Assembly (NCBI GenBank): GCA_964653435.1
Contig: CAZZFA010000008.1
Coordinates: 15,253-79,252, forward strand
Direction: 5' to 3'
From: an uncultured Planctomycetales bacterium
Lineage (GTDB): Bacteria > Planctomycetota > Phycisphaerae > UBA1845 > PWPN01
DNA: 64,000 nt
Part shown: positions 41,465-64,000 of the stretch, piece after piece
How positions within the stretch are numbered: position 1 is the stretch's first letter
Layout of the letters: each line of letters begins with the position of its first letter
Notes under the pieces: generated by a model
What the model was told of the DNA's origin: nothing
What the model saw: the letters and a program-made list of their open reading frames with translations, nothing else
Databases searched by the model: none
Program-made: the position numbers and the translations under genes

Positions 41465-42015
41465 TGATCGACGGGCATTCGCTCACCCCCACCAGGAATC
41501 CCAGCTCGTCATACCGGATGTCGGGCGGGTTACGCCGGCACACTCCGAACGGATCAAACGACGGCCAGCCTGACCGGCTGGCAGTCGTCCATCCCCATCG
41601 CGACTCACGGCTCGTCAGGCTGGGCGTCGCGATCGTTCAGCGTCCGGTTGATGGGCGCTGCGTTACGGCAGCGGCGATGTTGGATCGGCAAACGCGACTG
41701 CCATAAGCCTGTGCCGAAAACGCGGACGACCGACAGAGGAGCAGTGGTATTTCGGCACCGCTCGGTGTTCAGTAACTCGTTATCTGAAAAGGTGTTAGCT
41801 CCTATGCCGTAAATCGACTATATAGACAATTGTGATCAGTGACCAAGTGGTCGTCCTTGATGGGCAAGGCGGTTCGTGGCTGGCGTAAGTACCGACGTAA
41901 ACGGACGGCGAGGAGCGAAGCCGCCCCGGTGGTGACGTAGGTAATTTGATCTTCCCAGGATTCCCCGGGGGATCGGGGCATTGGATGGTCGCATTCACTT
42001 GAGGAGGTTACGCCT

Positions 42016-42045
42016 GACGGCTCGTTGACGAGGGAACGAGCCGTC
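42016..42045 (+). promoter_or_regulatory. Perfect 11-bp-stem hairpin upstream of the first island ORF
   Basis: gacggctcgtt-gacgaggg-aacgagccgtc, 31 nt before the ATG at 42077. Confidence 0.4.
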
Positions 42046-42076
42046 ACGCGAACGGTGGTCGTTCGGAGGTATCACC

Positions 42077-42298
42077 ATGAATCCATACAAGCTCAGAGCC
42101 ATCGTCGAGCTGGTCCGGCGCCAAGGCAAACTGCCGACGGATCGTTGGGGGTGTGTATTGAGCCCTGATGATCTGCTCGTCTGGTTCGGGTTGAACAGCG
42201 ATCTGAGCCCGGAGGAGCAACGTGAGGTGAAGCGGGAGTTGGCCGCGCTGGCTGATGCAGAAGCCCTCGTGGATCGTCTGCGATCGGTACGGCCGTGA
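42077..42298 (+). CDS. Hypothetical protein (73 aa)
   Basis: GGAGG RBS. No recognised family. Confidence 0.5.
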   Translation: MNPYKLRAIVELVRRQGKLPTDRWGCVLSPDDLLVWFGLNSDLSPEEQREVKRELAALADAEALVDRLRSVRP

Positions 42299-42379
42299 AC
42301 GATTTCATCGATCATGTGGATTGTTCGGGATAGCGCCGGCAGCCAGCGGTTTGCGGGGGGCGGAGGTCGTCAGACTTCG

Positions 42380-42425
42380 TAAATGTTTTCCCCGCCGGGG
42401 ACCGGTCTCACGCCCTAAACATTTA
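42380..42425 (+). promoter_or_regulatory. Inverted repeat TAAATGTTT / AAACATTTA flanking a GC-rich near-palindrome
   Basis: 9-bp arms at 42380-42388 and 42417-42425. The spacer contains ccccgccgggg. Lies in the 230-bp gap before the 42529 ORF. Confidence 0.4.
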
Positions 42426-42528
42426 GCGATTCTGCCGACCGGCGGCCCCCCGCTGACCATTCGCTCTCTGACGGTTCGCAGACAAGCGTGCGAACCGCCG
42501 ATGAGCGGCGTCGCCGGAGGTAGTCGAA

Positions 42529-43122
42529 ATGGAAATACGAGAAGCGAGTGTACAGGAAATGGTGTGTGCGGCCAGCGAGGGGCGAGGCATCAGCGACGGA
42601 GTTGAGATTGCCGAGTCTTCTCTGCTACGGGTGGAGCGCGACAGGGGCTACGGCAGCGTGCCCGGCCTGGACGATGATGAGCTGGCGGACTCCGCGGAGC
42701 TTGAGCAACAGGTCTTCCTGGCAGACTGGGGTCCGATCCTTGCGTTGCCTTGCAGGGGCTTCGACGGCGGGATTCGGCCTGTCATCGACGAGTTTGGGAA
42801 ACTCGACTGGGGCGCCTTCGGTACCTGGGATTACGAGCGCCTCAAGGGGCCATTCGACAAGGCGAGATACAAAGCCGACAAGCTCCAGGAGCAGCTCCAG
42901 TGGGCGCTCATCATGTTCAGCATGGTGCAGGAACGGTTGTCGGTGCAGGCCAGGGTGGATGTGGCGGTCCGCATCCGTGGCGGCGTGGATCTTGACGACT
43001 TCGAGGACATGAACGAACACGCATACGCCCGCTGGTATCTTCGATCGCGACGCCTTCGCAACGAGATTCGGAGGCTCCGGGCGGCGAGCTGGCGCCGGCG
43101 GTACGGGAAGCACGATGCCTGA
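42529..43122 (+). CDS. Hypothetical protein (197 aa)
   Basis: GGAGG RBS. Acidic N-terminal half and basic C-terminus (RRLRNEIRRLRAASWRRRYGK). No recognised family. Confidence 0.55.
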   Translation: MEIREASVQEMVCAASEGRGISDGVEIAESSLLRVERDRGYGSVPGLDDDELADSAELEQQVFLADWGPILALPCRGFDGGIRPVIDEFGKLDWGAFGTWDYERLKGPFDKARYKADKLQEQLQWALIMFSMVQERLSVQARVDVAVRIRGGVDLDDFEDMNEHAYARWYLRSRRLRNEIRRLRAASWRRRYGKHDA

Positions 43123-43203
43123 GGGCATCGGCTTGGCTGCCTCGGGTCGGGTCGCTCAGACGCGGGCGACCCAACCCAAAGCGGTCGCACCGGAGGTACG
43201 AAA

Positions 43204-43461
43204 ATGAAGACAACAGATAAACGGTTCTTGGTCTATAACCTGACCGATGCGGTACTGGCTTGCCCGGAACTGCTGACCTTGGCTGAGGCGCGGAGCTTCA
43301 TCAGGAGCTTCCCGGAGAGGTTCGCTCAGCAGGGATACTACCTGACAGCAACCGGCGAGAGGATCAGGCCGGAGCTCGTCGAGTTCGACATGGTGGACGT
43401 GGGGGCAGACCCACCCCTCGGCCTCAGATCGATGGCCCAAGCAACTCATTGGGGGTGGTGA
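43204..43461 (+). CDS. Hypothetical protein (85 aa)
   Basis: GGAGG RBS. Overlaps the next gene start. No recognised family. Confidence 0.5.
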   Translation: MKTTDKRFLVYNLTDAVLACPELLTLAEARSFIRSFPERFAQQGYYLTATGERIRPELVEFDMVDVGADPPLGLRSMAQATHWGW

Positions 43462-44303
43462 AGACGAATGGCTCCCAAACACGGCAAATCATCCGGCAGG
43501 CTCTCGATGACCTGGCGGCCGCCTTGGAGGCGGGCGAGAGCGATCGCCTGCGGATTTACCTGGCCAGCATGGCCAGGTTCCATCGGTACAGCCTCGGCAA
43601 CATCTTCCTGATTCACATGCAGTGCCCGCGGGCCTCGCGAATTGCGGGTTACGGGACCTGGCAAAGACTCGGTCGGCACGTGCGGCGAGGCGAAAAGGCG
43701 ATTCGCATCCTGGCGCCTGTCGTCTGGAAGGACCCCGACGACAAGGACGACAAGGCCCACCTTGTGGCGTTCAAGACGACCTGCGTGTTCGACATCTGTC
43801 AGACGGAGGGCAAACCGCTCCCCGCCTTCGCCACCGTCGCCGGCAACCCGGGTGGCCATCTGGCGCGCCTGAAAGACTTCGTTCGGGAAAGCCGCATCTC
43901 GCTGGAATACTCAGATCGGACCGGCGCCGCCGAGGGGATGTCCCTCGGCGGCAGGATCGTGATGAAGTCCGGCCTGAAGCCGGCGGAGGAGTTCGCCGTG
44001 CTCGCGCACGAAGCCGCTCATGAACTCCTGCACGCAAAGGCGGAGTCTCGACCGGAAGAGAAAGCCGTTCGCGAGACCGAGGCAGAGGCGGTAGCCTTCG
44101 TGGTCTGCCAGGCAGTCGGGCTGGACACCAATACGGCCGCCTCCGATTACATTCAGCTTTACCAGGGAGACAAGGACACGCTGTTGGCGTCGCTGGAACG
44201 GATCCAGCGAACCGCCGCCACGATCATTCACGGCGTTTTGGACGCTGATCGGCGCGCTGATGATGAGGCGACCGACGCGATCGTGCCTCTTCCCGGGGTG
44301 TGA
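43449..44303 (+). CDS. ardC: ArdC-like antirestriction protein (ssDNA-binding N-domain plus HExxH metalloprotease domain)
   Basis: YSLGNIFLIHMQCPRASRIAGYGTWQRLGRHVRRGEKAIRILAP is the ArdC-N/DUF1738 type. C-terminal LAHEAAHELLH. Confidence 0.8.
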   Translation: MGVVKTNGSQTRQIIRQALDDLAAALEAGESDRLRIYLASMARFHRYSLGNIFLIHMQCPRASRIAGYGTWQRLGRHVRRGEKAIRILAPVVWKDPDDKDDKAHLVAFKTTCVFDICQTEGKPLPAFATVAGNPGGHLARLKDFVRESRISLEYSDRTGAAEGMSLGGRIVMKSGLKPAEEFAVLAHEAAHELLHAKAESRPEEKAVRETEAEAVAFVVCQAVGLDTNTAASDYIQLYQGDKDTLLASLERIQRTAATIIHGVLDADRRADDEATDAIVPLPGV

Positions 44304-44335
44304 AGAGGCTCGCCGCGTAAGACGGCGGGCCCAAG

Positions 44336-44626
44336 GTGAAAAACATGCAAACACAAAAACCAGTTGCAAGATTCCGCGCAGGTCAGGTGAGCTGCGCGTT
44401 GTGGGAGAACGAGATCACCGTCGGCGGCAAGCGCCAGGTGGTGCTCAGGGCCACAGTCGACCGACGCTACAAGGATCGGGAAGGCGTCTGGAAGACCTCG
44501 CAGAGCTTCTCGCGGAACGAGATCCCGTTCGCGATCTACGTTCTGCAGAAGGCGTTTGAGTCAATGGTGAGCAAGCCGGATGAACAGGATGCGCCAGAGG
44601 TTGTCGAGGAGGAGCGGGTGATATGA
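44336..44626 (+). CDS. Hypothetical small protein (96 aa), possibly nucleic-acid binding
   Basis: ARFRAGQVSCALWENEITVGGKRQVVLRATVDRRYKDREGVWKTSQSF... with an acidic tail. Any resemblance to PC4/YdbC-like ssDNA binders is weak and unverified. Confidence 0.45.
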   Translation: MKNMQTQKPVARFRAGQVSCALWENEITVGGKRQVVLRATVDRRYKDREGVWKTSQSFSRNEIPFAIYVLQKAFESMVSKPDEQDAPEVVEEERVI

Positions 44627-44679
44627 GCGCGCCCGAGTCGCCGGCGGAAGCGCCGGGGATGCCATCCCCGGCAACCCCT

Positions 44680-45927
44680 CTATCCGCGAATCTCGAAGTT
44701 CATCCGGACGGCCTGGTAGATCTTCTCGACCAATTCCTCGGAGAGGTCGAGGGTGATCTCCCGGGTCCGGCCGTAGCGGCCGTGGGAGACGACCCGCGTG
44801 CGGGCCAACCCGTACATGTCCAACTCGTCGAGGAGATCCCCGAAGGCACGGCCGGTCATCGTGCGCATGCCGGTCCGGTCGCAGAAAGACTTGTAGGCAT
44901 CATAAGCATCGCCGGTGCCGACGGGCGCGCCCTTGGCTCGGCTCGTCGCCTCGATGACGGCAGCCATGGCGGCCTGCAACTGCACCGGGGCCGAACGAAG
45001 CAATGTGAGGTAGCGGTCCCGGTCGAGTTCCAGGGCGGCATCATCCACGAGGGCCAGGGTGAGCTTGCTTCCGGCCTTCTCGGCCAGGTACGCGCTCTTG
45101 CCCAGCAGGGCGACCGCCTGGCGGGCATCGCCGTGGTCCTGGCTGGCCATGGCCGCGATCTTCTCGACGACGCCGGGGTCCACGCTGCCGGGAGTCAGCG
45201 CCTTCTCTACGCGGATGCGGAGGATGTGCTGGAGGTCCATGGCATCGTAGGGCTTGAAGATCAGTTCGTTGAGCTTGAGGAAGGACTTTGCCCGCGGGTC
45301 CATGTGATCGGGCCAGTTCAGCTTGTTCGAGACGAAAACAAGGATCAGTTTGACCTGGATGCGCTGAGGGAGCCGACGCACGAGGAAGGTCAGGAATGCG
45401 TCGCGGTCGCGCCGGACGTTGTCCACTTCATCGACGAACAGAATCAGATAGCCTCGGTACTCGCCCAAGGCGGCCTCGATTCGGAGCATGAGCTCCTCGA
45501 GCGAGATGCCCTTCTTGTAGCGCTTGCTTGCGTTGAAAAGACACGCCAGGTCGTTGAGAGCCCGGAAGCACGGCCGCGGCGTGGACAGGTCCAAGTGCTC
45601 ATGCCGCACAGGCACGTTCTTGGCGCGGGCCATCTCCGCGAGCAGGTTCAGGAAGAAACTCAGCGTGAGTGTCTTGCCGGTTCCGGTCTTGCCCCAGATC
45701 GCCAGATGGCATGGGTGATCACCGCGCAGCACGCCGGCAAAATGGCTGCTGAGCTCCTGAATTTCGGCATCGCGGACATTTGCATTGAAGATCTCTTCCA
45801 GGACCGCCAGCTGCTCCGACCGGATGAGTTGCTCGTCATCCAGGAAGCGCCGGTCCTTGATGATTGCGTTGCCGACCATGTGCTGGATGCGGCTGGCGAT
45901 CTTGGATCGCACGGTTGTTGGTTCCAT
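44680..45927 (-). CDS. Orc1/Cdc6-type AAA+ initiator-like ATPase with C-terminal winged helix
   Basis: GGAGGTG RBS before ATG 45927. Walker A LAIWGKTGTGKT, Walker B LILFVDEVDNV, PRAKS, KPYDAMDLQHIL, HGDARQAVALL. WH domain GDLLDELDMYGLARTRVVSHGRYGRTREITL. Confidence 0.88.
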   Translation of the reverse strand: MEPTTVRSKIASRIQHMVGNAIIKDRRFLDDEQLIRSEQLAVLEEIFNANVRDAEIQELSSHFAGVLRGDHPCHLAIWGKTGTGKTLTLSFFLNLLAEMARAKNVPVRHEHLDLSTPRPCFRALNDLACLFNASKRYKKGISLEELMLRIEAALGEYRGYLILFVDEVDNVRRDRDAFLTFLVRRLPQRIQVKLILVFVSNKLNWPDHMDPRAKSFLKLNELIFKPYDAMDLQHILRIRVEKALTPGSVDPGVVEKIAAMASQDHGDARQAVALLGKSAYLAEKAGSKLTLALVDDAALELDRDRYLTLLRSAPVQLQAAMAAVIEATSRAKGAPVGTGDAYDAYKSFCDRTGMRTMTGRAFGDLLDELDMYGLARTRVVSHGRYGRTREITLDLSEELVEKIYQAVRMNFEIRG

Positions 45928-46113
45928 TGGAAAACCACCTCCAGATGTGTCCAGTGGAAGCACATGTATAAAAAGCTTTCGGCCGCCAGACGGAGTGACG
46001 TTCGAGTGGAACATCGCCGCAGGCCGCGGATGCGTCCCTTTGTTTCTGGTGTTTTTCCAGAAGGTGCCGGGGCCTGCGAGGCCCGGGGTAAGGTTTATAA
46101 ACGTCGTACCTGT

Positions 46114-46168
46114 GTAGTAGTAGTTAGTAGTAGAAAAAGAGAAGAGAAAGAGAAGAGAAAGAGAAGAG
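46114..46168 (+). repeat. (GTA)n-like tract followed by three perfect tandem 11-mers AAAGAGAAGAG on a 37-nt all-purine run
   Basis: gtagtagtagttagtagtag at 46114-46133. 11-mers at 46136-46146, 46147-46157 and 46158-46168. Lies in the intergenic region upstream of the Orc1/Cdc6 gene. Confidence 0.9.
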
Positions 46169-46289
46169 GCGCTGCAGTGGAAAACTACTCACACTGACAG
46201 CACGGGATCGATTCCCGTGATCGGTCCAGGCGGCGGTTCACCGGACAGCGAGCGAACCGCCGCAAGCGCGGTTGGCTGGAGGAAACACA

Positions 46290-46556
46290 ATGTGCAGAAA
46301 CAAAGATGCCGCGACGGTGATACGAGCCCTCGACACGGCCCTTCTGGAACAGGCCAGACGGTGGCAAGCCTTCATTTCGAGATGCGGCGCTGCGAGTGAT
46401 ACCCCTGGGGGGGATTGGGCGGAGGAGTTTTGCCTGGTCGTCCACAACCGGCTGGCCAAGCTACGGACACAGCAGACGCCGGCACAGGTGTGCCGGGCGA
46501 GCCCTGGAAGGCGCCAAGAGGAGAAGGCGCCTGACGGCGAAACGGAGGATTCGTGA
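46290..46556 (+). CDS. Hypothetical protein (88 aa)
   Basis: GGAGGAAACACAATG start context. No recognised family. Confidence 0.5.
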   Translation: MCRNKDAATVIRALDTALLEQARRWQAFISRCGAASDTPGGDWAEEFCLVVHNRLAKLRTQQTPAQVCRASPGRRQEEKAPDGETEDS

Positions 46557-46707: not shown

Positions 46708-47046
46708 ATGGAACACACACCCAATATCGACGCAGCGGCGATGGAGAAGCTGATGGCCGACAGAAGGCAGATGGCCGATGTGGTATTCGACCGGCTTCTG
46801 CTGTCGCGATATCACCGCAGCTTGGCTGACTTGGAGCTCCTTCCGGACCCGGAGGGGAGGCAGGAAGCGGATCATGTGGCCGAGTTCTGCTATGAAATCG
46901 AGGACCATCTGCGGGCTCTGCTACGCGAGCATCGCGGGGAAAGCCCGGAACAACTCCAGCGAAGGAAAGCGGCAATGGAAACGGGGGATGACGGAGTCTC
47001 ATTAGATCCAGCATCTGACCCGGCGCAAGAGCCGGGCCAACCGTAA
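46708..47046 (+). CDS. Hypothetical acidic protein (112 aa)
   Basis: GGAGG lies 8 nt before the ATG. No recognised family. Confidence 0.55.
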   Translation: MEHTPNIDAAAMEKLMADRRQMADVVFDRLLLSRYHRSLADLELLPDPEGRQEADHVAEFCYEIEDHLRALLREHRGESPEQLQRRKAAMETGDDGVSLDPASDPAQEPGQP

Positions 47047-47078: not shown

Positions 47079-48167
47079 ATGCCCTTCGCAGATCCACTTT
47101 CGCTCTTTCCAATCGGCCAGTTCTTCGAGTCCCTGCTACCAGACTTCATTCTGGCCTTCACGTTCTTCACCGCGTTAGTCTACGCGGTGCTGGGGAGACG
47201 CTTTGATCACCAGCGCTCGGCCGTGGCCATGGCCGCGGCCGTCGGCCTGGCCCTCAGCCTGGGCCTCGTCTGGTGGGAAGCGCAAACCGGCCTGTCTGTC
47301 AGAAACCTCGGCCCGCTGGCAATCGGCTTTGCCGTCATTCTCCTGGGCATGATCATGTTTCAGGGGATCCGTCAGACCGGCGGGTCCTGGGCAGGCGCCG
47401 GCATCGCCATGGGCGCCAGCATCCTCATCGCCTGGATCCTCGGCGTGGACTGGCCTGTTGCACCGGCGGTCGTCCAGTCGCTCGCGATCGTGGGCCTGCT
47501 CGCCGGCATCATCGCGTTCTTTCTGCATCGGCATGTACCCTCGTCGGGCTATCACTGGGCCCCGGCCAACGTTCAGCCTGAACTGGCGGGCGTTCGACAC
47601 GACATGAGCGATCTTTACGAGGATCGCCGGATGGACCAGCGGATCGGGGGCGCCCTCGCACACCTCCGGGCCCGGACTGATTCGCTGTCCGTCCATCGTG
47701 AGGAGGCCCCGGACTTCATGGCTCAGCTCCGGCGGATCCTGCCGGCAGAGGGTTGGCTGACGGAACGGCTCGCCGCCCTGCGGGCGCGGGCCCACGTGAC
47801 CCGCAAGGCACACCTGGATCGGATCGATGAACTGCGCCACGTAATGGGCAAGCTTCCGCGGGACGTCCGAAAGAAAGCCGAGGACGAGCTGGCCGCCCGT
47901 TACGAAGAACTGAACATGGACAAACGGCTGGAGCGGCTGGACGCCGCCGTGGCCGAGAACGAGCGCCGCATCCGGGACCTGATACGGGAAGCCGAGGCCG
48001 CGGTCGTCCACAACGATTACCGAAAGCTTGCGGACCTGCTCGACGCCGCCCGCAAGCTGCAGGCGCACAACGGCAAGTTGTTCACGCTGATCGAGCGGGG
48101 GGAACACAGGTTGATCGAGGCGGCACAACGAGTCGCCAAGGATGTATCCGCGGTGAACGATGCGTGA
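47079..48167 (+). CDS. Hypothetical membrane protein with C-terminal coiled-coil region
   Basis: ~5 hydrophobic segments in residues 1-160, then a charged helical region (RKKAEDELAARYEELNMDKRLERLDAAVAENERRIRDLIREAEAA). Confidence 0.65.
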   Translation: MPFADPLSLFPIGQFFESLLPDFILAFTFFTALVYAVLGRRFDHQRSAVAMAAAVGLALSLGLVWWEAQTGLSVRNLGPLAIGFAVILLGMIMFQGIRQTGGSWAGAGIAMGASILIAWILGVDWPVAPAVVQSLAIVGLLAGIIAFFLHRHVPSSGYHWAPANVQPELAGVRHDMSDLYEDRRMDQRIGGALAHLRARTDSLSVHREEAPDFMAQLRRILPAEGWLTERLAALRARAHVTRKAHLDRIDELRHVMGKLPRDVRKKAEDELAARYEELNMDKRLERLDAAVAENERRIRDLIREAEAAVVHNDYRKLADLLDAARKLQAHNGKLFTLIERGEHRLIEAAQRVAKDVSAVNDA

Positions 48168-48619
48168 AGGTGGGCGCATCGCGGCTCGAAGACCGCCTGG
48201 CACCCTGGGAACCCCCGTACAAGTCCCGCGGGGAAGCGCAAGTAGGCCGGCTCCTTGACCGGTACGGGATACCCTTCTTCTACGAGAGCCCGTGGACCGT
48301 TCAAGACCAGGGGCGGCAGCGCACGTGGCATCCCGATTTCGCCTTGTTCTCCTATCGTGGGCTTGTGCTCGAGTACGCCGGCATGCCGGATCGTCCCGAT
48401 TACATGGAGGGCATTCGTAAGAAAGAGCGTGTGTACGCGCAAAACAGAATCCCGGCCGTGTTCGTGTATCCGCAGGACCTCCGCGGGCCGTGCTGGCCCG
48501 CACAGGTAATCGAGCGGATACGGGACACGTATCACGCAAGTTTCGGCCGGAAGAGTTACGGGGGTGCGGGGCACAGGTGGTACGCGTGCGGCGCACCGGC
48601 ACGCGCGAGGTACCGCTGA
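48164..48619 (+). CDS. Hypothetical protein, possible restriction-endonuclease-fold (PD-(D/E)xK-like) domain
   Basis: 4-nt overlap with the previous gene. The pattern E..VGRLLDRYGIPFFYE...HPDFALF...LVLEYAG resembles Vsr/DUF559-type cores. Unverified. Confidence 0.4.
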   Translation: MKVGASRLEDRLAPWEPPYKSRGEAQVGRLLDRYGIPFFYESPWTVQDQGRQRTWHPDFALFSYRGLVLEYAGMPDRPDYMEGIRKKERVYAQNRIPAVFVYPQDLRGPCWPAQVIERIRDTYHASFGRKSYGGAGHRWYACGAPARARYR

Positions 48620-48636
48620 TCTGATGACCGGCGGAC

Positions 48637-50763
48637 TCACGCCCTGAGGTCGAGCCAGGTCAGTAGCTCGACGGGCGTGCGTGCGCTCGATCCCGCGGCC
48701 GCTATGGCCTTCTGGCAGGCGCCGACGGCCTCGGGACAGGTCGCCAGGAGGATGATCCTGTCGAAACCGGCGTTCTTGAGCTTCGTGATGTTTTCTTTGA
48801 TGTCAGATTTGCCGGTCTCGATTTCGAGGGCGACTCGCGCTCCCGGCCGCTCGGCCAGGAGATCAACAATGCCGTCGCCGGGTACGGGGTACTCGTGGGT
48901 GACCTCGTAGCCTTCGGACTCCAGATACTCGGCTGCCCGCTGAGCCCAGAACTGGTGCTGCAGGCTGGCGCGGGGGACAGTGCCGGGGTCAATGCCCATC
49001 TCGTCACACAGGGACCGGCCGTACTCCGTCAACTGGTAGAGCACGACCTGGCCGGAGCGCGTGGCGATGGTGGTGGCCTCGATGAAGCCGCCGGCGGCGA
49101 GCTGCTGCCGGACGGCGTTGCCTTTTCGTCGCGACAGATTCAGCCGCTGATATCGTGAGACGGTGGTGGACAGCGGCCTGGCCGCCACGTCGGCCAGGAA
49201 CCGGATCTCTTCCCGAGACATCTCGGGAAGAGTCTTGGGCGGTTGGCTATTTGGATCATCAGATGAATCATCTACTGGATATGGTCCGGATGAAGTCATC
49301 TGTGATTCAATGGGGGATGGTGGGTGGGGATTATTCTCTTGATATTCATCCGGGGCCGGAACGGGAGTGATCGGTGCCCATAAGGCCAGCGCGGGGCTAT
49401 TCGGTCCGGAATCACCGGAACAGGTCCCCATCCGGTCCCGAACCTGGTCATCCGAGACCGAGCCCTCTTGGATCGGAAACAACGGGACTCGGACCAGGAA
49501 GGGTTCGGGGTGTTCGTCCGCCAGGCGCACGATCGCGGTACCGATGGGCAACGTGCTGAGGGCCTCTTTCTGTTCCTCAGTCAGGTTCATGGCCCCGGCA
49601 ATGGTCTGGATGTCGCCGCGCAGCTTCTGGCTCAAGGCCAGGGTGGCATACGAGTTGGCAAAGGCGACCTTGCTCAAGAGGGATGCGGACTGATCGACAA
49701 AGACGTAACCCATGCCGTACTGGCGGATCATTCGGATTGAATTCTCCAGCACGGATTCCTTGGCTTCGGCGGCCTTCTGCAGCAGAAGGTTGTGCGCCTC
49801 CTCCAGAACGATCAGGTTGGTCAGTTTGGTTTGGGGCCCCTGGGCCAGGCGATAGCGGTACAGGTATAGCGTGAGGGCCTCCGAGAACATGGTTCGGTCG
49901 GAGTTGCTGGACAGGCCGTCCATCTCCAGGACCACGTTGTGGTTCAGCAGATCGCGGACGTGGCTGTTGTTCTGCGTGTTGACCACGGAACCGAACTCGC
50001 CATAGGTCATGGCAAGCAGGATCCTCTCGGCCGAAGCCTGCCACATGGCGGCTCGGCCTCGAAGCTTGTTGGATTGGAGCCAGATCAGAAGATCATGAAC
50101 TGTGGGCCATCGGGTCGGGTGTCCATCGAAGACGCCGGCGTCGCGGAACAGCTTGTCCAGCCCGGCGACCAGAAGGCTGATGACGCCCTCGCCGCCGAGG
50201 TAAGCGGCGGCGATGACGTCAACGATCAGCTTGATCCAGACGTTCGGCTCGCAGCCTGGCGGCGGGATCAGGGGGTTGAATCGGAAGGGAGAAACGTCCC
50301 GCCCGATGGTGTACACGTGAAGATCGGATTGGACGGCCATGAGGTCGCGGTACCCTCGCTTCCAGTCGAGGGCCAGCACGTTGATGCCGCGGGCCATGAT
50401 CCCCTTCATAAGAACGAAGGTCAGGTTGGTCTTCCCGGAGCCGCTTCGGCCGGCCACGAGGATGTGTTCTTTCAGCCTGGCGCTTTTGAGGAAGAAGGGG
50501 TAGAGCTCACGCTGGCCGTAAGAGACGTTGCCGACCTGAATGTCGCCGGCCAAGGCAAAGGTTCGCTCTGGCGGCGGGAACGGCGATCGGTCGGGCATGT
50601 AGTTCTGACCGAGATGGCGTGCGGCCAGCAGCTCGAGCATCTGCTCGATGTCGGCCTTGCCAGCTGGATCCGACTCGGACAGGTACACCGCCCAGAGTCG
50701 ATCGACTTTGGGGCCCAGGACAGGTTTGAGCTTACGACATAGTTCCTGAACACGAAGCATCAT
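48637..50763 (-). CDS. HerA/FtsK-superfamily (DUF87-like) ATPase fused to wHTH and C-terminal PD-(D/E)xK nuclease-like domain
   Basis: Walker A ILVAGRSGSGKTN and Walker B NLIVLEEAHNLL. Pro/Ser-rich linker. wHTH-like RRKGNAVRQQLAAGGFIEA...VVLYQLTEYG. Terminal GYEVTHEYPVPGDGIVDLLAERPGARVALEIETGKSD. Confidence 0.75.
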   Translation of the reverse strand: MMLRVQELCRKLKPVLGPKVDRLWAVYLSESDPAGKADIEQMLELLAARHLGQNYMPDRSPFPPPERTFALAGDIQVGNVSYGQRELYPFFLKSARLKEHILVAGRSGSGKTNLTFVLMKGIMARGINVLALDWKRGYRDLMAVQSDLHVYTIGRDVSPFRFNPLIPPPGCEPNVWIKLIVDVIAAAYLGGEGVISLLVAGLDKLFRDAGVFDGHPTRWPTVHDLLIWLQSNKLRGRAAMWQASAERILLAMTYGEFGSVVNTQNNSHVRDLLNHNVVLEMDGLSSNSDRTMFSEALTLYLYRYRLAQGPQTKLTNLIVLEEAHNLLLQKAAEAKESVLENSIRMIRQYGMGYVFVDQSASLLSKVAFANSYATLALSQKLRGDIQTIAGAMNLTEEQKEALSTLPIGTAIVRLADEHPEPFLVRVPLFPIQEGSVSDDQVRDRMGTCSGDSGPNSPALALWAPITPVPAPDEYQENNPHPPSPIESQMTSSGPYPVDDSSDDPNSQPPKTLPEMSREEIRFLADVAARPLSTTVSRYQRLNLSRRKGNAVRQQLAAGGFIEATTIATRSGQVVLYQLTEYGRSLCDEMGIDPGTVPRASLQHQFWAQRAAEYLESEGYEVTHEYPVPGDGIVDLLAERPGARVALEIETGKSDIKENITKLKNAGFDRIILLATCPEAVGACQKAIAAAGSSARTPVELLTWLDLRA

Positions 50764-51359
50764 GGTTGGTCACCTCCTTCATCCCCGAGGATCTGCAGCT
50801 TTCGAAAAGCAGACAGATACTGCTGAGCGGATTCAGGCAGGCGTTCACGGATTCGGGACACGTCGCGCCAGAAGGTCACTCGCTCCGCGCGCTGTTCGGC
50901 GCGCAGGTCGTGCATGCGTTTTTCGTAGACGGCATAGGCTTCCTCTGTCGCGGGGTTAGCGTTTCGGGCGAGTTCGTTGAAGGCGTAGCACTGGGACCAC
51001 TGGATATCGAGCATGTTCTTCTTGTAGATCTCCTCTCGCTGTTTGATCTGGCCAAGGACATCGTCAAGGGCCATCCAACTGGTGTGCTTGCGATCGAACA
51101 AAACCGCGGTCTCCGGCTCATGGTCCGGGACCGCGAAGTAGCCCTCTTGAACGAGATCTTCGACGGTCTGCGGACCGTCATCGATTCCAGCGACGTCTTC
51201 GTCGGCAGGAGAAGCGGGCTTGGCGGTCCAATAGGGTCGGACACCGTACCGCGGCAACGACGGCGTACGGCCATACTGATGATGCCTGCCGTACAGGTAC
51301 TGGTAGGCAATGGAGCCGTACGGAGTACCTGCGGCGGGACTTGTTGTTGATGGATTCAT
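50760..51359 (-). CDS. Hypothetical protein (199 aa), translationally coupled to the HerA-like gene
   Basis: GAGGTG RBS before ATG 51359. ATGA overlap with the downstream ATPase start. No recognised family. Confidence 0.6.
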   Translation of the reverse strand: MNPSTTSPAAGTPYGSIAYQYLYGRHHQYGRTPSLPRYGVRPYWTAKPASPADEDVAGIDDGPQTVEDLVQEGYFAVPDHEPETAVLFDRKHTSWMALDDVLGQIKQREEIYKKNMLDIQWSQCYAFNELARNANPATEEAYAVYEKRMHDLRAEQRAERVTFWRDVSRIRERLPESAQQYLSAFRKLQILGDEGGDQP

Positions 51360-51544: not shown

Positions 51545-51712
51545 ATGGGAAGACCATTCAAGTGCCCGTACTGCGGATCCAACGAGACCGTCAGCAAGGG
51601 CGTGCGCCGCAACAAGACCGTCGGCGATCGCAAGGTGCGTCGGTGCAAGAAATGCCATCGCAAGTTCACGCCAAAGAACCAGCTATCGGTGAAGGCGGAG
51701 GACGAGGATTAG
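51545..51712 (+). CDS. 55-aa zinc-ribbon protein, below the track cut-off
   Basis: GAGGTG RBS. Product MGRPFKCPYCGSNETVSKGVRRNKTVGDRKVRRCKKCHRKFTPKNQLSVKAEDED, i.e. CxxC...CxxC with a basic loop. Confidence 0.6.
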   Translation: MGRPFKCPYCGSNETVSKGVRRNKTVGDRKVRRCKKCHRKFTPKNQLSVKAEDED

Positions 51713-51824
51713 CGGAGACCCCACGCAATGGACTCGCGACCGCGAGATCATTCGTCTGGCGTTCGAGCTGGCCCGCGCCGTCGATGCCCTGGTCGAGCAT
51801 ACGAGGGCATTCTGCTACGAGGTC

Positions 51825-52478
51825 ATGCTCTCGGCCCACGGCTGCCCAAAGTGCGGCGGCTCGCTGAAGATGATCGGCGAGAGCAGGTGTGCTTGCCGCG
51901 AGTGTTTGTACGAGTTCGACCCGACCGTCCACTTTCAGCGGTGTCCGGCCTGCGAAGGCCGGCTGCGGCTGCGGATCTGCCGGTACGTCTGCCAGAAGTG
52001 CGGGGCAGACGTACCGTCCCGCTTCGTGTTCGACGGGGTCGTCTTCGATCACGAGTACTTCCGCCGGAAGATGGCGGAGTCGCGTGAGCGGCAGCGGGAA
52101 CAGCGTGCCGAGCGCCAACAGCAGGTGGCGGAGAACCGGTCAGCGTCGGCGGAACCTCCGCCGGTGGACCTGGCTTCCGTGCCCGGTCTGCTGCAGGCGT
52201 TGAACGGCCTGACCGCGATTCCCGATCTGGCGGCTTGGGCGCCCCTGATCCAGGGTTTCGACTTGCAGCGCTACGAGGCGCATTTGCAGGCCCATATCGG
52301 GGCGACCGAACGCCGGTTCGATGATCTGCCAGCCCTGGACGAAAACCCTCGCCTGGACCGCATCTGGCGGTTCATCGCGATCATCTTCATGGCCCATGCC
52401 GGCCGTATCCGGGTCCGGCAACAGGGGCCGACCATTCTGGTGGCGAAAGTACATGAGACTGACACAGAAGGACCGTGA
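51825..52478 (+). CDS. Multi-zinc-ribbon protein (217 aa)
   Basis: CPKCGG, CACREC, CPACEG and CQKCG pairs in the first 70 aa. The frame is open from 51693 with no canonical start before 51825, so the true start is uncertain. Confidence 0.6.
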   Translation: MLSAHGCPKCGGSLKMIGESRCACRECLYEFDPTVHFQRCPACEGRLRLRICRYVCQKCGADVPSRFVFDGVVFDHEYFRRKMAESRERQREQRAERQQQVAENRSASAEPPPVDLASVPGLLQALNGLTAIPDLAAWAPLIQGFDLQRYEAHLQAHIGATERRFDDLPALDENPRLDRIWRFIAIIFMAHAGRIRVRQQGPTILVAKVHETDTEGP

Positions 52479-52809
52479 GTTCCTGGAAACACTCAAACGG
52501 CTCATGGAGTCGAAGGACCTGTGGGTGGACTTCGCGTCGGGCCACCCAGGTTACATGGTCCTGCGGGGTACTTACGGCGACAAAGTCCATCAGGCCTTCC
52601 GCATGAGCCGTCAGGGCGTCCGCTGGCGTTTTCAACGTCTGTTCAACGAGGTGTACGTCAATGCGTTCGAGACCATCCTGTTCATCGAGAAGATCTTCGG
52701 TCCGCAGCTCCGCGAGCACGCCGTACGAATCAGCCAGGAGCGGTACACGAACCGCCAGCAGCATCGACAAGCCGGGTTCCGATCGGCCAGCGAGGTGAAC
52801 CGCGAGTGA
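52453..52809 (+). CDS. Hypothetical protein (118 aa)
   Basis: MRLTQKDREFLETLKRLMESKDLW... Overlaps both neighbours. No recognised family. Confidence 0.5.
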   Translation: MRLTQKDREFLETLKRLMESKDLWVDFASGHPGYMVLRGTYGDKVHQAFRMSRQGVRWRFQRLFNEVYVNAFETILFIEKIFGPQLREHAVRISQERYTNRQQHRQAGFRSASEVNRE

Positions 52810-53297
52810 CCGATTCAACCAAGATCGACTACCGGTACCGTCGTATCAGCCAGATCGGGGATGTAACCGACCTGGTCACCATGCTGTTTCCGGGAAACCG
52901 AAACCAGCAGCACGCGGCGGCGCGGATTCTTCTCGTGTTGCGCGATGCCGAGGATCTGCGGGACAAGCTCAACGACCTGCAGCGGCGTTATGGTATCTCA
53001 CGGAGGACGCTGGAACGGACTCGGGCCAAGCTTGTCCGCCTGGGCCTCATCGAGCGCATCAGTTGGATGAACACCCGCTACGGTGGCCGGGAGGGTTGGA
53101 AGCTGTCTAGCCGGATGAGTTCATCGTTGCGCCAGCTGGCGGATCGGATTGATACTTGGCGAGCAGACCAGCGGCCGGAGGGTGCTCGGAAAGAGCAGGC
53201 GCTGATCGAGCTGTTGCGGCCTGCTGCGGCGGCGAGAAAGGAATTGCCTGAAGTGCGACGACCTGATGAGCGAATCGAAAGCCGGTCGTCTTCATGA
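52806..53297 (+). CDS. Putative winged-helix DNA-binding protein (163 aa)
   Basis: GTG start in a GTGA overlap. YGISRRTLERTRAKLVRLGLIERI is HTH-like. Confidence 0.5.
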   Translation: MTDSTKIDYRYRRISQIGDVTDLVTMLFPGNRNQQHAAARILLVLRDAEDLRDKLNDLQRRYGISRRTLERTRAKLVRLGLIERISWMNTRYGGREGWKLSSRMSSSLRQLADRIDTWRADQRPEGARKEQALIELLRPAAAARKELPEVRRPDERIESRSSS

Positions 53298-57787: not shown

Positions 57788-58006
57788 ATGTTCGAGTCAT
57801 TGAACAAGGTCGATTGGGACCTGTTGCATGCGCAGAAGCTCACGTTGCTGGTGATACGAAGTCGGCAGCGCGATGGCTCACGCGAATTCGAGGCCCTGTC
57901 GGGGATCATCCATCTGCTGGATGCCCTGCAGGATGATGCCGTCGCCGACGGCCGTTGGAGGTTTCCGAATGAGAACGACGAGGAGGTGCACGATGTCAAA
58001 GCATAG
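57788..58006 (+). CDS. Hypothetical small protein (72 aa)
   Basis: GAAGGAGG RBS before ATG 57788. No recognised family. Confidence 0.5.
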   Translation: MFESLNKVDWDLLHAQKLTLLVIRSRQRDGSREFEALSGIIHLLDALQDDAVADGRWRFPNENDEEVHDVKA

Positions 58007-58568
58007 CGAATGGTCTGAAGTAGCCCCCCACATCATCTACGAGGCCTATCCGGATCACGACCTGCTGCCGATCGAACCCCCGCACGCCGGCGAGACCATC
58101 GGCGAGTTCTCGGCCAGGGCCGAGAATGCCGCGGACACGTTGTTCTTGTTTCTCTGCCGCGAGGCGGATGATGAGATCGATGTCCTTGAGTACTGGGCGC
58201 GACTGGATCGGGCGACTGGTGATATACAGAGCATACGGGATGCGCTCCGGGAGATCCCGTCCCCTCGATCGTCTGATCCCGGAACCGACAAGCGGGATGT
58301 GACCATCCGGCTCTCGCTTGATGCGGACTGGATCGAGCTGCTGCTGACGTACGCGGATGCGCGGGGCCGCCGATCTGGGAGCGTCGCGTCCACGCTGCAC
58401 ACATCCGAAGAGGACGCAGAAGAGTTCAACGCGGCGATGGATGCAGTTGAGTCCATGGTCCTCGGACACGCCTGCGCTGGGATCGACGTGACCGATCCCC
58501 GGTACGTCGAGGGCCTGCGCACGTGCATCGACGCGTGCGCGAACAACCTGCCGGGAGGTGATGCATGA
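57993..58568 (+). CDS. Hypothetical acidic protein (191 aa)
   Basis: GAGGAGG RBS. Overlaps both neighbours. No recognised family. Confidence 0.55.
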   Translation: MSKHSEWSEVAPHIIYEAYPDHDLLPIEPPHAGETIGEFSARAENAADTLFLFLCREADDEIDVLEYWARLDRATGDIQSIRDALREIPSPRSSDPGTDKRDVTIRLSLDADWIELLLTYADARGRRSGSVASTLHTSEEDAEEFNAAMDAVESMVLGHACAGIDVTDPRYVEGLRTCIDACANNLPGGDA

Positions 58569-58936
58569 TGATGCCCGAATACGAGTGTGACTGCTGCGGA
58601 GCCTGTTGTCGGGGTACGTTGATCGTCGAGGCGTACTACCTTGACGTGGTTCGCGAGCCCAGGCTCCTGGAGGCGGATGTGTGCGGTCGGCGTCCCACGA
58701 TGGCCGAGTTGTCTGATGACGACGGCCGGTGCATCGTGCTGGCCGCGAACCGGCCTTGCCGGTTTCTCTCCCCTGACGGTCGATGCACGATCTACCCCAC
58801 CCGCCCCAACAACTGCGTCGGCATGGAGGCGGGCGACGAGCAGTGCCAGGAGGCTAGAAGCCAACTGGACCTGCTGCCCCTCCAACCATCTCAACCCTCC
58901 CAATCGCCCGCACAGAACCCGCCACGCGTGTCCTGA
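58565..58936 (+). CDS. YkgJ-family Cys-cluster protein (CxxCxxCC, putative Zn/Fe-chelating)
   Basis: ECDCCGACCRG near the N-terminus, and PCRFLSPDGRCTIYPTRPNNC later. This is the UPF0153/YkgJ pattern. Confidence 0.7.
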   Translation: MMMPEYECDCCGACCRGTLIVEAYYLDVVREPRLLEADVCGRRPTMAELSDDDGRCIVLAANRPCRFLSPDGRCTIYPTRPNNCVGMEAGDEQCQEARSQLDLLPLQPSQPSQSPAQNPPRVS

Positions 58937-62077: not shown

Positions 62078-62669
62078 GAAGCTGAATCTGATGCTGGAGA
62101 CCGCGGCCGCACTGACCGCAGATGATCTCGATTGCCTTCGGGGCGTCGCGTTTGGCGCAGCGACGGAGTTGCCCGATGAGGAAAACGAGGTGGCAACGCC
62201 AACCTCCCCGGACGTCGCTGAAGAGTCCTCTTCAGACGACCACGCTGAGGCAGACGGAGCGCCACCGTCACGCCAAGCCCCGCGGAACGCTCAAGCCGTT
62301 AACCGCCGGCGTGCTGCTGCGCCCTCGTCAGGTGTGTCGGCAGGCGAGTACGAACGTCAGCGGACTCGCGAGTCGAAGGTTTCGACGGCCTGCATCGGTC
62401 ATGAACGCGAGAAGCATGACTGGTGGCCGATCGGCACGACGCTTGTCGGCCAGATCGGCTCCGAGACCTTTACCGCGACCGTGGTGGAGAACACAAGCGT
62501 CAAGAGCAACCGGAGCCTGCTGATCACATCAGGCGCCGCGAGCGGACGCGTCTGCATCACGCCCACGCGGGCGGCGATGGAAGCCACGGAAGCCTATCGT
62601 CAGGCCCACAACCTCGGTCGAGGGGGTGGTGTCACGAACGGATGGGAGTTTTGGAAAGCGCAAGCGTGA
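62067..62669 (+). CDS. Hypothetical protein (200 aa) with acidic disordered N-half
   Basis: GTG start after AAGGGAG. The C-terminal ...ITPTRAAMEATEAYRQAHNLGRGGGVTNGWEFWK loosely resembles the SPSxAA...NGWxxWK motif of DUF4357-type domains. Unverified. Confidence 0.5.
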   Translation: MLDKKLNLMLETAAALTADDLDCLRGVAFGAATELPDEENEVATPTSPDVAEESSSDDHAEADGAPPSRQAPRNAQAVNRRRAAAPSSGVSAGEYERQRTRESKVSTACIGHEREKHDWWPIGTTLVGQIGSETFTATVVENTSVKSNRSLLITSGAASGRVCITPTRAAMEATEAYRQAHNLGRGGGVTNGWEFWKAQA

Positions 62670-62925
62670 GCCTGCGTGTCCTTCCTCTCCTCTTCTCACA
62701 TCTTTCTCCTGCGCCCAAGCCTTGGGCGCATTTTTCCCCCTGAGCCAGCGACAGCTCCGTTCGACGCGGGTCCCGCGGGACATCATGACACAAACACATG
62801 AGCGTAAGTGTGCGCTGGCGCGCCACTTATGGGCTGTCGCAGAATTCCTGCGGGAAACCACTTGCGCCCTGCCCCGCTGTGCGCTATGTTGGATATGAAG
62901 TCTGTGACTCGAAAGGAGGTTTCGC

Positions 62926-63222
62926 ATGACTCTCGGAATTCGAAAACTGATCGTTCTGTCATTGGTTGCCAGCGTGTTCCTCCTCGGGAACCTGTGGTTG
63001 GTCGTGGGCTGGCTCCAGAATCACGGCGTCATCGACGGAGCCCGTTACGTGCGGGCGGAGTACCTGACCGGTACGGCCATCACGATTATCGTCGTGCTGC
63101 TGATTCTGCTGGCTCGTTCGAACGCAGAGCGGCCGGCATGGTTACGCCGGTGCTCTGTTTGCGATCACGTGCTGGTCACGCGAGGCCGGTACTGCGCCGA
63201 TTGCGGCAGCAAGGTAAGCTGA
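62926..63222 (+). CDS. Small membrane protein with C-terminal zinc ribbon
   Basis: AAAGGAGG RBS. Two TM segments, then CSVCDHVLVTRGRYCADCG. Confidence 0.6.
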   Translation: MTLGIRKLIVLSLVASVFLLGNLWLVVGWLQNHGVIDGARYVRAEYLTGTAITIIVVLLILLARSNAERPAWLRRCSVCDHVLVTRGRYCADCGSKVS

Positions 63223-63272
63223 AGGCCTGCGGTGAAGGCACAACTGGCGGTGAGTGAGTGCTCGTCGCAGAC

Positions 63273-63521
63273 CTAGCCGCGATGGTCTCGCATGAGCTTG
63301 TCGAACAGCTTTTGGCTCATCAGGCCATCCTCGTAACGAGGAAGCCGCGGCGGTTCGGGTCGAGGCTCATTGAATCGCGGCGCGATCGGCTGCGGTGTTG
63401 GGACCCAGGGCTGCTCCCAGTGGTACGGTGTGTAAGAGGATGCCGGCCCGGCCAGGCCCGGCTCGGTTCGGCGCACGAGATCATCGAGAGACGAAGGGCG
63501 AAGCGGATCGATCGGATTCAT
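63273..63521 (-). CDS. Hypothetical Pro-rich small protein (82 aa)
   Basis: GGAGG lies 6 nt before ATG 63521 (MNPIDPLRPSS...). No recognised family. Confidence 0.4.
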   Translation of the reverse strand: MNPIDPLRPSSLDDLVRRTEPGLAGPASSYTPYHWEQPWVPTPQPIAPRFNEPRPEPPRLPRYEDGLMSQKLFDKLMRDHRG

Positions 63522-64000
63522 GTCAACCTCCATGACCGTTCCTCGGGAAGATATCCCCAAGACGGTGAAGCCTCTGTTCGAGAGCAACGATTGCCCTCTC
63601 ACCCTTCATACGGGCCTTTTGGATTGCCGATTTCATCCTGACGATTCCCAGAGGCGTTCGCGGACCCTCGGCTAACGTCTCGTTGTTCCCAGTGCGAGAA
63701 ACATATGTGCAGGAGGGGGCACCGTCGACCAACGGGGCCCGATGGGCAGATCTGGCATGGGGGAACATTGACAAGGGAAACGCCCTCCGAAACGATTCCG
63801 TCGAAGCCACGCGGAACCTCCCATCCGGTAAGCCAGTTTTGCGTTGAATGGGATGTCCCGGATGCGTGCCGGCCGTGTTGGCCGTGTTTTTGGTGCGGGC
63901 GTATCCCGCCGTTCATCCGCGCGCCGAGTTTTAACACTCCAGTCGCGTCCATACCCCGCGTCGATGCCACTCTTCCATCCATCAGGAGCGGCCTCTCGCC

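Follow-up and report, generated by a model that had tools for sequence, protein, structure and literature searches.

Integrative and conjugative elements of actinomycetes (AICEs) carry their own replication initiator, replicate after excision, and use a single FtsK/HerA-superfamily translocase instead of a type IV secretion system (T4SS). One account of these elements describes integration in tRNA genes and conjugative transfer (PMC2440964). Relaxases of the PF13814 (Replic_Relax) family form the MOBC class in CONJscan, and the described examples of integrative mobilisable elements (IMEs) that carry them are from Firmicutes (PMC5357655). Planctomycete plasmids have been reported with RPA-family Rep proteins, ParAB partition systems and MOBF or MOBP relaxases, with Cdc6/Orc1 and ArdC unmentioned (preprint 10.1101/2024.01.22.576637). 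Here we analyse a 64,000-nucleotide stretch of contig CAZZFA010000008.1 (positions 15,253 to 79,252; GenBank assembly GCA_964653435.1), hereafter called the window, from an uncultured Planctomycetales bacterium of the Phycisphaerae. A block at about 42.0-63.86 kb of the window is probably a copy, complete in its backbone, of an element that integrates, replicates itself and can be mobilised but is unable to move alone, and it belongs to a family abundant in Phycisphaerae. What sets it apart is its conserved archaeal-type initiator and candidate origin; it is otherwise a known kind of element.

By analogy of gene content, AICEs appear to be the closest functional counterparts of the family, with the MOBC-relaxase IMEs also close, and the replication module appears closest to archaeal orc1/cdc6 origins with origin recognition boxes (ORBs). 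Like AICEs, the family consists of small (10-25 kb), tRNA-integrated elements with a tyrosine integrase and Xis, an initiator of their own and one FtsK/HerA-superfamily translocase. The two differ in host phylum, planctomycetes being diderm, and in replication, the family using Orc1/Cdc6 with ORB-like boxes where AICEs use a RepSA-type protein. They also differ in that the family has a Replic_Relax/MOBC-class protein, with no sequence similarity to TraB or Spd found and transfer putative, and in that the window copy is without int and xis. Full members resemble the MOBC IMEs in joining an integrase, a PF13814 protein and an FtsK/HerA-type ATPase, genes for a mating pore being absent, whereas the family has no defined origin of transfer and the window copy is without a relaxase gene. 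With archaeal orc1/cdc6-ORB replicons the family shares the three-domain build of the initiator and an orc gene adjoining an AT-rich tract flanked by TTCCANTGGAA dyads that match the CTTCCAGTGGAAACGAAAGGGGT core; it differs in its bacterial host and in being without the G-rich ORB extension and without MCM. The best matches to the window Orc1 in the PLSDB plasmid database are haloarchaeal, and their identity of only 25-30% argues for an old bacterial branch as opposed to a recent transfer. Known planctomycete plasmids have phylum and host-like GC content in common with the family, but their Rep, partition and relaxase types differ.

Distribution, mobility genes and predicted life cycle of the family

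Genes in the window were called from codon-position GC and ribosome-binding sites. Pfam scores were read against family cut-offs, and PHROGs, NCBIfam and PADLOC were also scanned. A first-pass annotation, made from the letters of the sequence, had described the block as a set of mostly unknown genes with mobile-element hallmarks, and the ArdC-like, Orc1/Cdc6, HerA-like and CobS-like plus VWA genes that it named were confirmed by Pfam where it had placed them (Table 1).

The Orc1/Cdc6 protein is far more conserved than other products of the block: it has 822 database homologues, the best 120 of which are 73-100% identical, and all matches that carry a source name are from Planctomycetota/Phycisphaerae. 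Scanned with the CobT-like protein, reference genomes gave 11 loci, 10 in metagenome-assembled genomes (MAGs) of Planctomycetota and 1 in a MAG labelled Pseudomonadota, and a metagenome scan gave 80 further loci (related loci are designated by L numbers). The sources of the relatives are Planctomycetota MAGs, mostly Phycisphaerae. Contigs with 100% identity to the window occur in the read sets SRR12969846 and SRR12976788. Gene clustering delineated a backbone that recurs in more than 80 loci and comprises Replic_Relax, p73, p197, sometimes ArdC, p93, Orc1/Cdc6, the membrane protein TM362, a PD-(D/E)xK nuclease, and the HerA-like ATPase with a 199-amino-acid (aa) partner. In the subgroup to which the window belongs, this backbone is extended by zinc-ribbon and winged helix-turn-helix proteins, GHKL, CobS-like and CobT-like proteins, F3 and F8. 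One MAG has four CobS-CobT modules on four contigs and another has two whole copies of the element; one copy lies within a 5.6-Mb contig and another within a 298-kb contig, and some copies are flanked by PriA or a ClpB-like ATPase.

Collinearity with the window extends over 47079-63222 in L008 and over 42077-63222 in L014 plus L102, which overlap exactly on one 139-kb contig and together hold a whole 19.4-kb element with unrelated genes on both sides. Between the sister copies L015 and L016 identity is 96%, and with window 43146-53224 both share about 89% DNA identity. The proposal that the block is a mobile-element-derived unit was supported by the presence/absence comparison suggested along with it: L015 is flanked by a CusA-like pump, L016 by a WD40 protein and the window copy, as a third context, by GH127. 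The same element is found in different genomic contexts both by these flanks and by the seven tRNA species beside related copies (below). Compared by length with their counterparts in L015 and L016, the backbone genes of the window, orc1/cdc6 and the gene for the 708-aa ATPase among them, look intact. Literature searches on Cdc6/Orc1 in planctomycetes or Phycisphaerae found no description in the library searched, which is not proof of novelty. Taken together, these data indicate that the block is one ~22-kb copy of a widespread, apparently undescribed mobile-element family of planctomycete bacteria.

In a separate set of contigs (L019, L022 and L029, from JGI and ENA), a copy with a 91% identical Orc1 shows invasion and rearrangement: around its orc1/cdc6 lie FGE-sulfatase genes, a group II intron reverse transcriptase and an IS91-type Y2 transposase with integrase fragments.

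The first-pass annotation had recognised no integrase, relaxase, T4SS or virion gene and had raised the possibility of a new type of element. The absence holds for this copy, since none of these families was found in the block by Pfam, PHROGs or NCBIfam; the novelty does not, as related loci carry integrase and relaxase-like genes. Twenty-two related loci have a relaxase-like gene of the Replic_Relax family, which scores 61-76 bits where the cut-off is 25.3 and has no match in NCBIfam; in L015 and L016 it encodes a 311-aa protein (76 bits) and lies just outside the p73 gene. In another subgroup an Xis-like gene and then a tyrosine integrase come after the relaxase gene. Tyrosine integrases were found in 19 related loci (63-84 bits against a cut-off of 27.1), the clearest of them in L042 (4600-5883; HDIRRT...GH...Y motif, Phage_integrase 63 bits). 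A tRNA gene stands beside the integrase in 17 of the loci examined and specifies Phe, Met, Arg (two anticodons), Pro, Asp or Val. Its 3′ end faces the integrase in most of these loci, the usual layout of tRNA-targeting integrative elements, and tRNA-Arg is reversed in L044 and L058. When five family integrases, three relaxases and Xis were used as tblastn queries against the window and 1.6 kb beyond it (taken from L020), nothing better than E = 0.2 was obtained, which argues that the window copy is without all three genes. It is a decayed or stranded member of an otherwise conventional tRNA-integrating, relaxase-bearing family.

The HerA-like protein, called an ATPase-nuclease at first reading, scores above the cut-offs for DUF87 and HerA_C, and its assignment to the ATPases stands. 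Its best NCBIfam matches (CedD, TraC and VirB4) are all far below cut-off, as is a TraG P-loop model, and HerA 4d2i is matched at E = 0.006. CedD is a HerA/VirB4-like ATPase required for DNA import in Sulfolobales (PMC11868833). The C-terminal extension appears to combine a winged helix with a D..ExK nuclease-like motif; a D...ExK-like motif and a single match at E = 0.009 were all that pointed to the nuclease part. From these features, the protein is a candidate DNA translocase or coupling protein. Its gene adjoins those of a membrane protein and a small nuclease, and, together with the relaxase-class gene of the relatives, this set looks like a mobilisation module without a mating pore. In L016 (1037-3162), L024 and L033 (5649-7706) the ATPase gene is split into two open reading frames (ORFs), which suggests decay of those copies; in the window it is intact.

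The gene order of full members is tRNA gene, tyrosine integrase, Xis-like gene, Replic_Relax, Orc1/Cdc6 with origin, small proteins, membrane protein, nuclease and HerA/VirB4-type ATPase, to which the subgroup of the window adds an accessory GHKL, CobS-like and CobT-like module. In the life cycle proposed for the family, Int and Xis would excise the element from the tRNA gene and the circle would replicate from mini-ORB-like dyad boxes round an AT-rich tract, recognised by its own Orc1/Cdc6. The relaxase-like protein and the HerA-type ATPase would process and move the DNA, probably via the pore of a helper element since no mating-pore genes are present, and ArdC would shield the incoming DNA from restriction. 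In the window copy int, xis and the relaxase gene appear to have been lost, with a 426-bp filler in their place, and orc1/cdc6, the origin boxes and the ATPase gene kept. This copy would therefore be stranded and at most mobilised in trans.

Orc1/Cdc6 and the adjoining candidate origin

The most unusual feature of the block, missed by the first-pass annotation, is the ORB-like candidate origin beside orc1/cdc6. All parts of the initiator architecture (AAA+, lid and C-terminal winged helix) are present in the protein, with Pfam matches to Cdc6_C (75 bits), Cdc6_lid (57 bits) and AAA_22 (40 bits). Its best solved relatives, matched over the full length at E values of 1e-51 to 1e-54, include A. 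pernix ORC1 (2v1u; E = 8.5e-54) and S. solfataricus Orc1-1 (2qby), the archaeal initiators reported to have been crystallised on origin DNA.

Four mini-ORB-like boxes lie upstream of the gene (Table 1). Their core agrees with the archaeal ORB consensus CTTCCAGTGGAAACGAAAGGGGT (PMC4153887), and the G-rich extension of full ORB boxes is missing. The AT/purine-rich tract (46096-46169) has a GC content of 0.42 and includes 11-bp repeats at 46129-46168.

The arrangement was compared across 83 loci, in which 764 kb were scanned in all. The 500 bp upstream of orc account for 199 occurrences of the dyad CCANTGGAA/TTCCANTGG and the remaining sequence for 12, and the positions of the dyad are conserved at about -3, -32, -84 or -112, and -245 or -290. 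GC content drops to 0.35 between -250 and -176 (51 distinct loci), and at least two exact boxes were found in 38 of the 69 loci having enough upstream sequence. ORB-like boxes with an AT-rich region adjoining orc1/cdc6 are present both in the window and across most related loci. As judged from these counts and positions, the orc-adjacent, archaeal-type origin layout is conserved across a family of bacterial elements, and the family seems to replicate with an archaeal-type initiator and with predicted origin sequences otherwise known from archaea.

Limits of the window copy and competing explanations

At the left end, homology to L015 and L016 starts at 42015, after the filler. The corresponding position in L015 and L016 is occupied by ~1.9 kb with the Replic_Relax gene. 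The stretch at 41500-41588 is probably flanking DNA, since it lies outside the region common to L015 and L016, whose homology ends at L015:15847. An AT-rich dip noted earlier at ~41.76-41.83 kb as a possible junction is real (GC 0.44 at 41750-41849), and the junction is close to the position proposed for it.

Relative to L015, the window has a 10-kb insertion at 31.56-41.5 kb (radical SAM, BNR, a 913-aa protein, and GH127 with GDSL) between stretches that are contiguous in L015; the boundary after GH127 therefore combines the edge of the element with the edge of an unrelated insertion. The insertion is bounded by an imperfect 13-bp direct repeat (CCCGCCTCGTCAG / CCCAGCTCGTCAT at 31534-31546 and 41500-41512), of which L015 has one uninterrupted copy. 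It holds no recombinase gene and includes an 85-bp direct repeat, 89% identical, at 31617-31701 and 34049-34133.

The right end was placed by comparison with L107, which shares 80% identity over 8.4 kb and keeps the same gene order as far as the F8 stop codon (63222). L107 has no counterpart of window 63223-63719, where an 82-aa minus-strand ORF lies, and the homology resumes in a short non-coding tail. The view that the window ends inside the element was not sustained for the backbone: L014 plus L102 and L107 end after the same last gene, conserved genes of the window copy stop at 63222, and the tail reaches ~63858. Delimited by homology in this way, the predicted backbone spans about 42.0-63.86 kb and is wholly inside the window. 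Variable cargo might follow past 64 kb; the next gene in the window's own strain encodes an XRE helix-turn-helix plus SNF2 helicase and starts at ~64240 (L020 1645-2979, equivalent to ~64240-65574). An integrase beyond 64 kb and a direct repeat matching sequence near 41.5-42.0 kb had been suggested as further marks of the element. No integrase was found in the 1.6 kb beyond the window, and the 9-mer CCAGCTCGT shared by 41501 and 64020 is at chance level.

Defence-type genes differ among copies at the F8 end, and could represent either a hotspot for cargo or simply a defence island. Beyond F8, L107 carries a Gabija-like pair of OLD/AAA_15 and UvrD genes (8829-12421), and L102 has AAA_15, DUF2130 and SIR2 plus Piwi (short Argonaute) genes (13203-21884). 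At the p73/relaxase end of the integrase-less subgroup, a large NACHT (often NACHT-HEAT) NTPase recurs (L014 14339-19396, L104 3848-8686, L085 9461-13015 and L082); the window has none.

Several observations weigh against an integrative, self-replicating and mobilisable element. The abrupt change reported after GH127 holds for gene content but not for composition: no break was found at 42 kb, with GC 0.62 on either side (62% for the whole window) and tetranucleotide profiles of the block and the remaining window correlated at r = 0.93-0.97, which is not below the values seen among the window's other segments, and the block matches host DNA. Neither the ends of the window copy nor those of the L014/L102 copy showed direct repeats of the attachment-site (att) type, and in integrase-bearing relatives no second copy of the tRNA 3′ end was found in the sequence covered, which stopped short of the far end. 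Transfer is conjectural, since no T4SS or coupling-protein family reaches its cut-off. Accessory or defence genes recur on both sides of the integrase-less copies (NACHT proteins, RND pumps, the Gabija-like pair and SIR2-Piwi), which makes the true limits of the mobile unit in the window's subgroup uncertain. The boxes at -3 and -32 could be autoregulatory operators. Archaeal Orc1 loads MCM, and neither MCM nor any other recognised replicative helicase is encoded in the element, which leaves Orc1-driven replication in a bacterium without a known mechanism. In the absence of MCM, Orc1/Cdc6 would have to recruit the bacterial helicase. We tentatively propose that the elements may replicate from a mini-ORB origin fired by their own Orc1/Cdc6, which would recruit that helicase directly or via p73, p93 or p197; these three proteins always accompany Orc1/Cdc6.

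An alternative is that the block serves a plasmid or megaplasmid as its backbone for replication and maintenance. In that case the source contig (86,217 bp) would be extrachromosomal, Orc1/Cdc6 would be its Rep, the metal-resistance, glycosidase and defence genes would be cargo, and no integrase would be needed. An intact orc1/cdc6 with its origin boxes fits such a replicon. Outside the block the window carries accessory functions throughout (a multicopper oxidase, a heavy-metal P-type ATPase, YHS proteins, GH127 and two RND efflux operons), and genes for RND pumps stand in the flanks of L014 and L015 as well. The accessory genes that recur on both sides of integrase-less copies also leave room for a plasmid, and planctomycete plasmids are reported to match the GC content of their hosts (preprint 10.1101/2024.01.22.576637). 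At the gathering threshold no tRNA, rRNA or other Rfam match was found in the 64-kb window, nor in four related loci. Partition genes are missing, however, with no ParA-type Walker motif anywhere in the window and no partition family among the block genes. A megablast search of the 22-kb block against PLSDB gave no match, and the haloarchaeal Orc1 matches there come from no related plasmid. Relatives are clearly chromosomal, as indicated by the 5.6-Mb and 298-kb contigs and by PriA, ClpB-like and tRNA flanks, and the 10-kb insertion next to flank DNA shared with L015 fits a fixed locus. We consider a plasmid unlikely.

It is more doubtful still that the block is a long-fixed, domesticated island, immobile and serving the host, for example in defence or stress response, whose mobile look reflects ancestry. 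The indistinguishable composition, the missing int, xis and relaxase genes, the lack of att repeats, the broken ATPase genes of L016, L024 and L033 and the defence-type genes beside many copies would all agree with domestication. Yet L015 and L016 are 96% identical in different flanks, several copies occur per genome, and the backbone genes of the window look intact by length against their sisters. PADLOC, moreover, matched no system and returned only weak single-domain hits (mad8, HerA, IetA and PD-DEXK).

A provirus of unknown kind, with the HerA/FtsK-type ATPase packaging its genome, is very improbable: the ATPase is in the FtsK-HerA superfamily, one weak PHROG match to a terminase large subunit was obtained (P-loop only, 3e-7) and many ORFs are unknown, but neither Pfam nor PHROGs revealed any capsid, portal, terminase, tail or lysis family, an IMG/VR scan with the HerA-like ATPase found no relative, megablast of the block against phage genomes found no match, and the relaxase-class gene of the relatives points to conjugative mobilisation.

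Other genes, neighbouring DNA and biological meaning

Table 1. Features of the block and its borders, in window coordinates
Feature	Position	Strand	Description
GH127 with GDSL domain	38682-41420		just upstream of block
Stretch shared with L015 flank, 89 bp	41500..41588	.	89% identity to L015 15916-16004
Junction filler, 426 bp	41589..42014	.	no homologue in any relative (blastn, tblastn); holds AT-rich dip
p73, small conserved backbone protein	42077..42298	+	38 gene calls in related loci, always near orc1/cdc6; GGAGG ribosome-binding site; no Pfam match
p197, conserved backbone protein	42529..43122	+	35 gene calls in loci; 116 database homologues; no Pfam domain
p85, small protein	43204..43461	+	restricted to the window's subgroup; no family match
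ArdC-like antirestriction protein	43449..44303	+	N-terminal ArdC domain and HExxH metalloprotease-like part
p93, conserved backbone protein	44345..44626	+	four beta strands and C-terminal helix; 36 gene calls in loci
Orc1/Cdc6 initiator homologue	44680..45927	-	intact Walker A (GKTGTGKT), lid domain, C-terminal winged helix
Candidate replication origin	45922..46182	.	four mini-ORB-like boxes (TTCCANTGGAA) round AT/purine-rich tract, upstream of orc1/cdc6
Box 1	45922-45932		TTCCATTGGAA; overlaps orc1/cdc6 start codon
Box 2	45950-45959		TCCAGTGGAA
Box 3	46001-46011		TTCGAGTGGAA; one of two bracketing the AT/purine-rich tract
Box 4	46173-46182		TGCAGTGGAA; one of two bracketing the AT/purine-rich tract
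p112, variable small acidic protein	46708..47046	+	88% identical to a 112-aa protein of L016
TM362, membrane protein	47079..48167	+	22 gene calls in loci; no family or PDB match
nuc151, small PD-(D/E)xK-like nuclease domain protein	48164..48619	+	4-nt overlap with TM362
HerA/VirB4-superfamily ATPase, 708 aa	48637..50763	-	DUF87 34.5 bits, HerA_C 28.8 bits, both above cut-off
h199, ATPase partner	50760..51359	-	co-transcribed with ATPase, 4-nt overlap; 16 gene calls in loci, always upstream of ATPase
55-aa zinc ribbon	51545-51712	+	DNA-binding-looking
p217 with zinc ribbons	51825-52478	+	DNA-binding-looking
p94	52525-52809	+	in set of small DNA-binding-looking genes
wH163, MarR-like	52806-53297	+	DNA-binding-looking
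F2a	53402-53806	+	accessory module; paralogue of F2b
p84	54170-54424	+	accessory module
p162	54564-55052	+	accessory module
GHKL-like ATPase	55210-56829	+	accessory module; HATPase_c 21.5 bits, below cut-off 26.4
F2b	56982-57653	+	accessory module; paralogue of F2a
p72, p199b and CxxCxxCC zinc/iron-chelating-domain protein (58565-58936)	57788..58936	+	PF03692 30 bits; collinear in L107
CobS-like AAA+ (AAA_5)	58996-60084	+	77 bits
CobT-like VWA protein	60137/60176-62077	+	
F3, 200-aa partner of CobS/CobT-like pair	62067-62669	+	
F8, 98 aa	62926..63222	+	hydrophobic stretch and CxxC...CxxC; last conserved backbone gene; last collinear gene in L008, L102, L107
Conserved non-coding tail	63720..63858	.	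73% identity over 140 bp to L107 8522-8660; L107 homology ends here

The strong GGAGG ribosome-binding sites and 4-nt gene overlaps reported for the block were recovered in the gene calls: GGAGG lies upstream of 16 of the 29 called genes, a Shine-Dalgarno sequence of at least 4 nt precedes 25 of them, and there are four such overlaps. The amino-acid composition is non-haloarchaeal.

Membership of the antirestriction protein in the ArdC family (N-terminal single-stranded-DNA-binding domain plus metalloprotease domain) is supported by an ArdcN (PF08401) score of 41 bits against a cut-off of 22.6, a weak Peptidase_M78 match and an HEAAH motif (HExxH) in the sequence. It matches a PHROG anti-restriction protein at 6e-13, and no solved relative was found by sequence. 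A single-sequence AlphaFold2 (AF2) model of p93 reached a predicted local distance difference test score (pLDDT) of 81 and gave no significant PDB match, SsbA being the best at E = 0.16. The AF2 model of p197 is helical (pLDDT 75.6), and Foldseek against the PDB returned nothing below E = 1. A p197 homologue, P0251 (74% identical), is 340 aa long and also bears ThiF (PF00899), which may reflect a fusion or a gene-call artefact. In the sequence of TM362, the N-terminal ~160 aa are hydrophobic with several apparent helices and are followed by a long cytoplasmic coiled coil. nuc151 matches the PADLOC HEAT_CxxC_PD-DEXK and PDC-S68 C-terminal domains at 6e-8 to 8e-5. Family profiles of p93, p197, TM362 and GHKL gave nothing meaningful against PDB sequences, and NCBIfam gave no match for the unknown ORFs of the block.

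The small genes at 51545..53297 have weak Pfam/NCBIfam zinc-ribbon and MarR_2 matches and are collinear in L008, L010, L102 and L103. For the GHKL-like protein, the original call is not supported by its Pfam score, which is below cut-off, but the ATP-binding residues E30/N34 and D56-x-G58-x-G60 are invariant in six family members. F2a and F2b are alike over their first ~130 residues (about 47% identity), and relatives have one or both. Near the position of p162, the accessory module of some relatives includes a DUF2958 protein (L014 1242-1574, L102 5404-5736 and L103 5834-6169).

CobS/CobT-like pairs occur on other mobile elements and phages. The CobS-like, CobT-like and F3 genes are adjacent wherever a locus extends that far. 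An AAA_5 ATPase followed by a CobT/VWA protein recalls cobaltochelatase, from which the module differs in its sub-cut-off scores and in having F3 always third. A true cobaltochelatase CobS/CobT pair was rejected: the equivalog scores are far below cut-off (141 bits against 558 for TIGR01650 CobS, 63 against 759 for TIGR01651), and no gene resembling CobN was seen within the block or next to it.

A GC-rich hairpin (CGGTTCGC...GCGAACCGCCG) is present in four copies (42472-42500, 43148-43172, 46234-46262 and 46651-46679). Three lie ~30-60 bp upstream of gene starts (p197, p85 and p112) and one upstream of an uncalled ORF; two of the four precede a common 20-mer containing a ribosome-binding site, and the hairpin may be a shared operator or 5′ untranslated-region element. 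A 50-nt inverted repeat, 78% complementary, has one arm (51374-51423) in the divergent promoter region by the ATPase operon and the other (53828-53877) after F2a; its arms may be shared promoter or operator sequences.

Outside the block, window 184-31224 is a heavy-metal resistance island with two OEP-HlyD-ACR_tran efflux operons, one with HMBD domains, together with an HMA P-type ATPase, a multicopper oxidase, YHS-domain proteins, a zf-HC2 anti-sigma factor and a SpoIIE phosphatase. Orthology of the heavy-metal operons of the window and L015 was rejected, the pumps being only 34% identical. A non-coding stretch of ~290 bp after the CusA-like RND pump gene (31267-31555) is ~75% identical to L015 16283-15990, and the region at 31.2-31.8 kb has no Rfam match even at a permissive threshold.

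The mobile DNA of the Planctomycetota is poorly known, and the only survey that we found lists RPA-type plasmids and MOBF/MOBP relaxases. With hundreds of copies in databases, this family would make up a major and as yet unnamed share of the planctomycete mobilome, and its neighbours include metal-resistance and defence genes. Annotations of "Cdc6" and "CobS/CobT" in planctomycete genomes flag mobile elements as opposed to cell-cycle or cobalamin genes. Strongly conserved Orc1/Cdc6 proteins with ORB-like boxes in bacteria would provide a natural system for studying how an archaeal/eukaryotic-type initiator works with a bacterial replisome.

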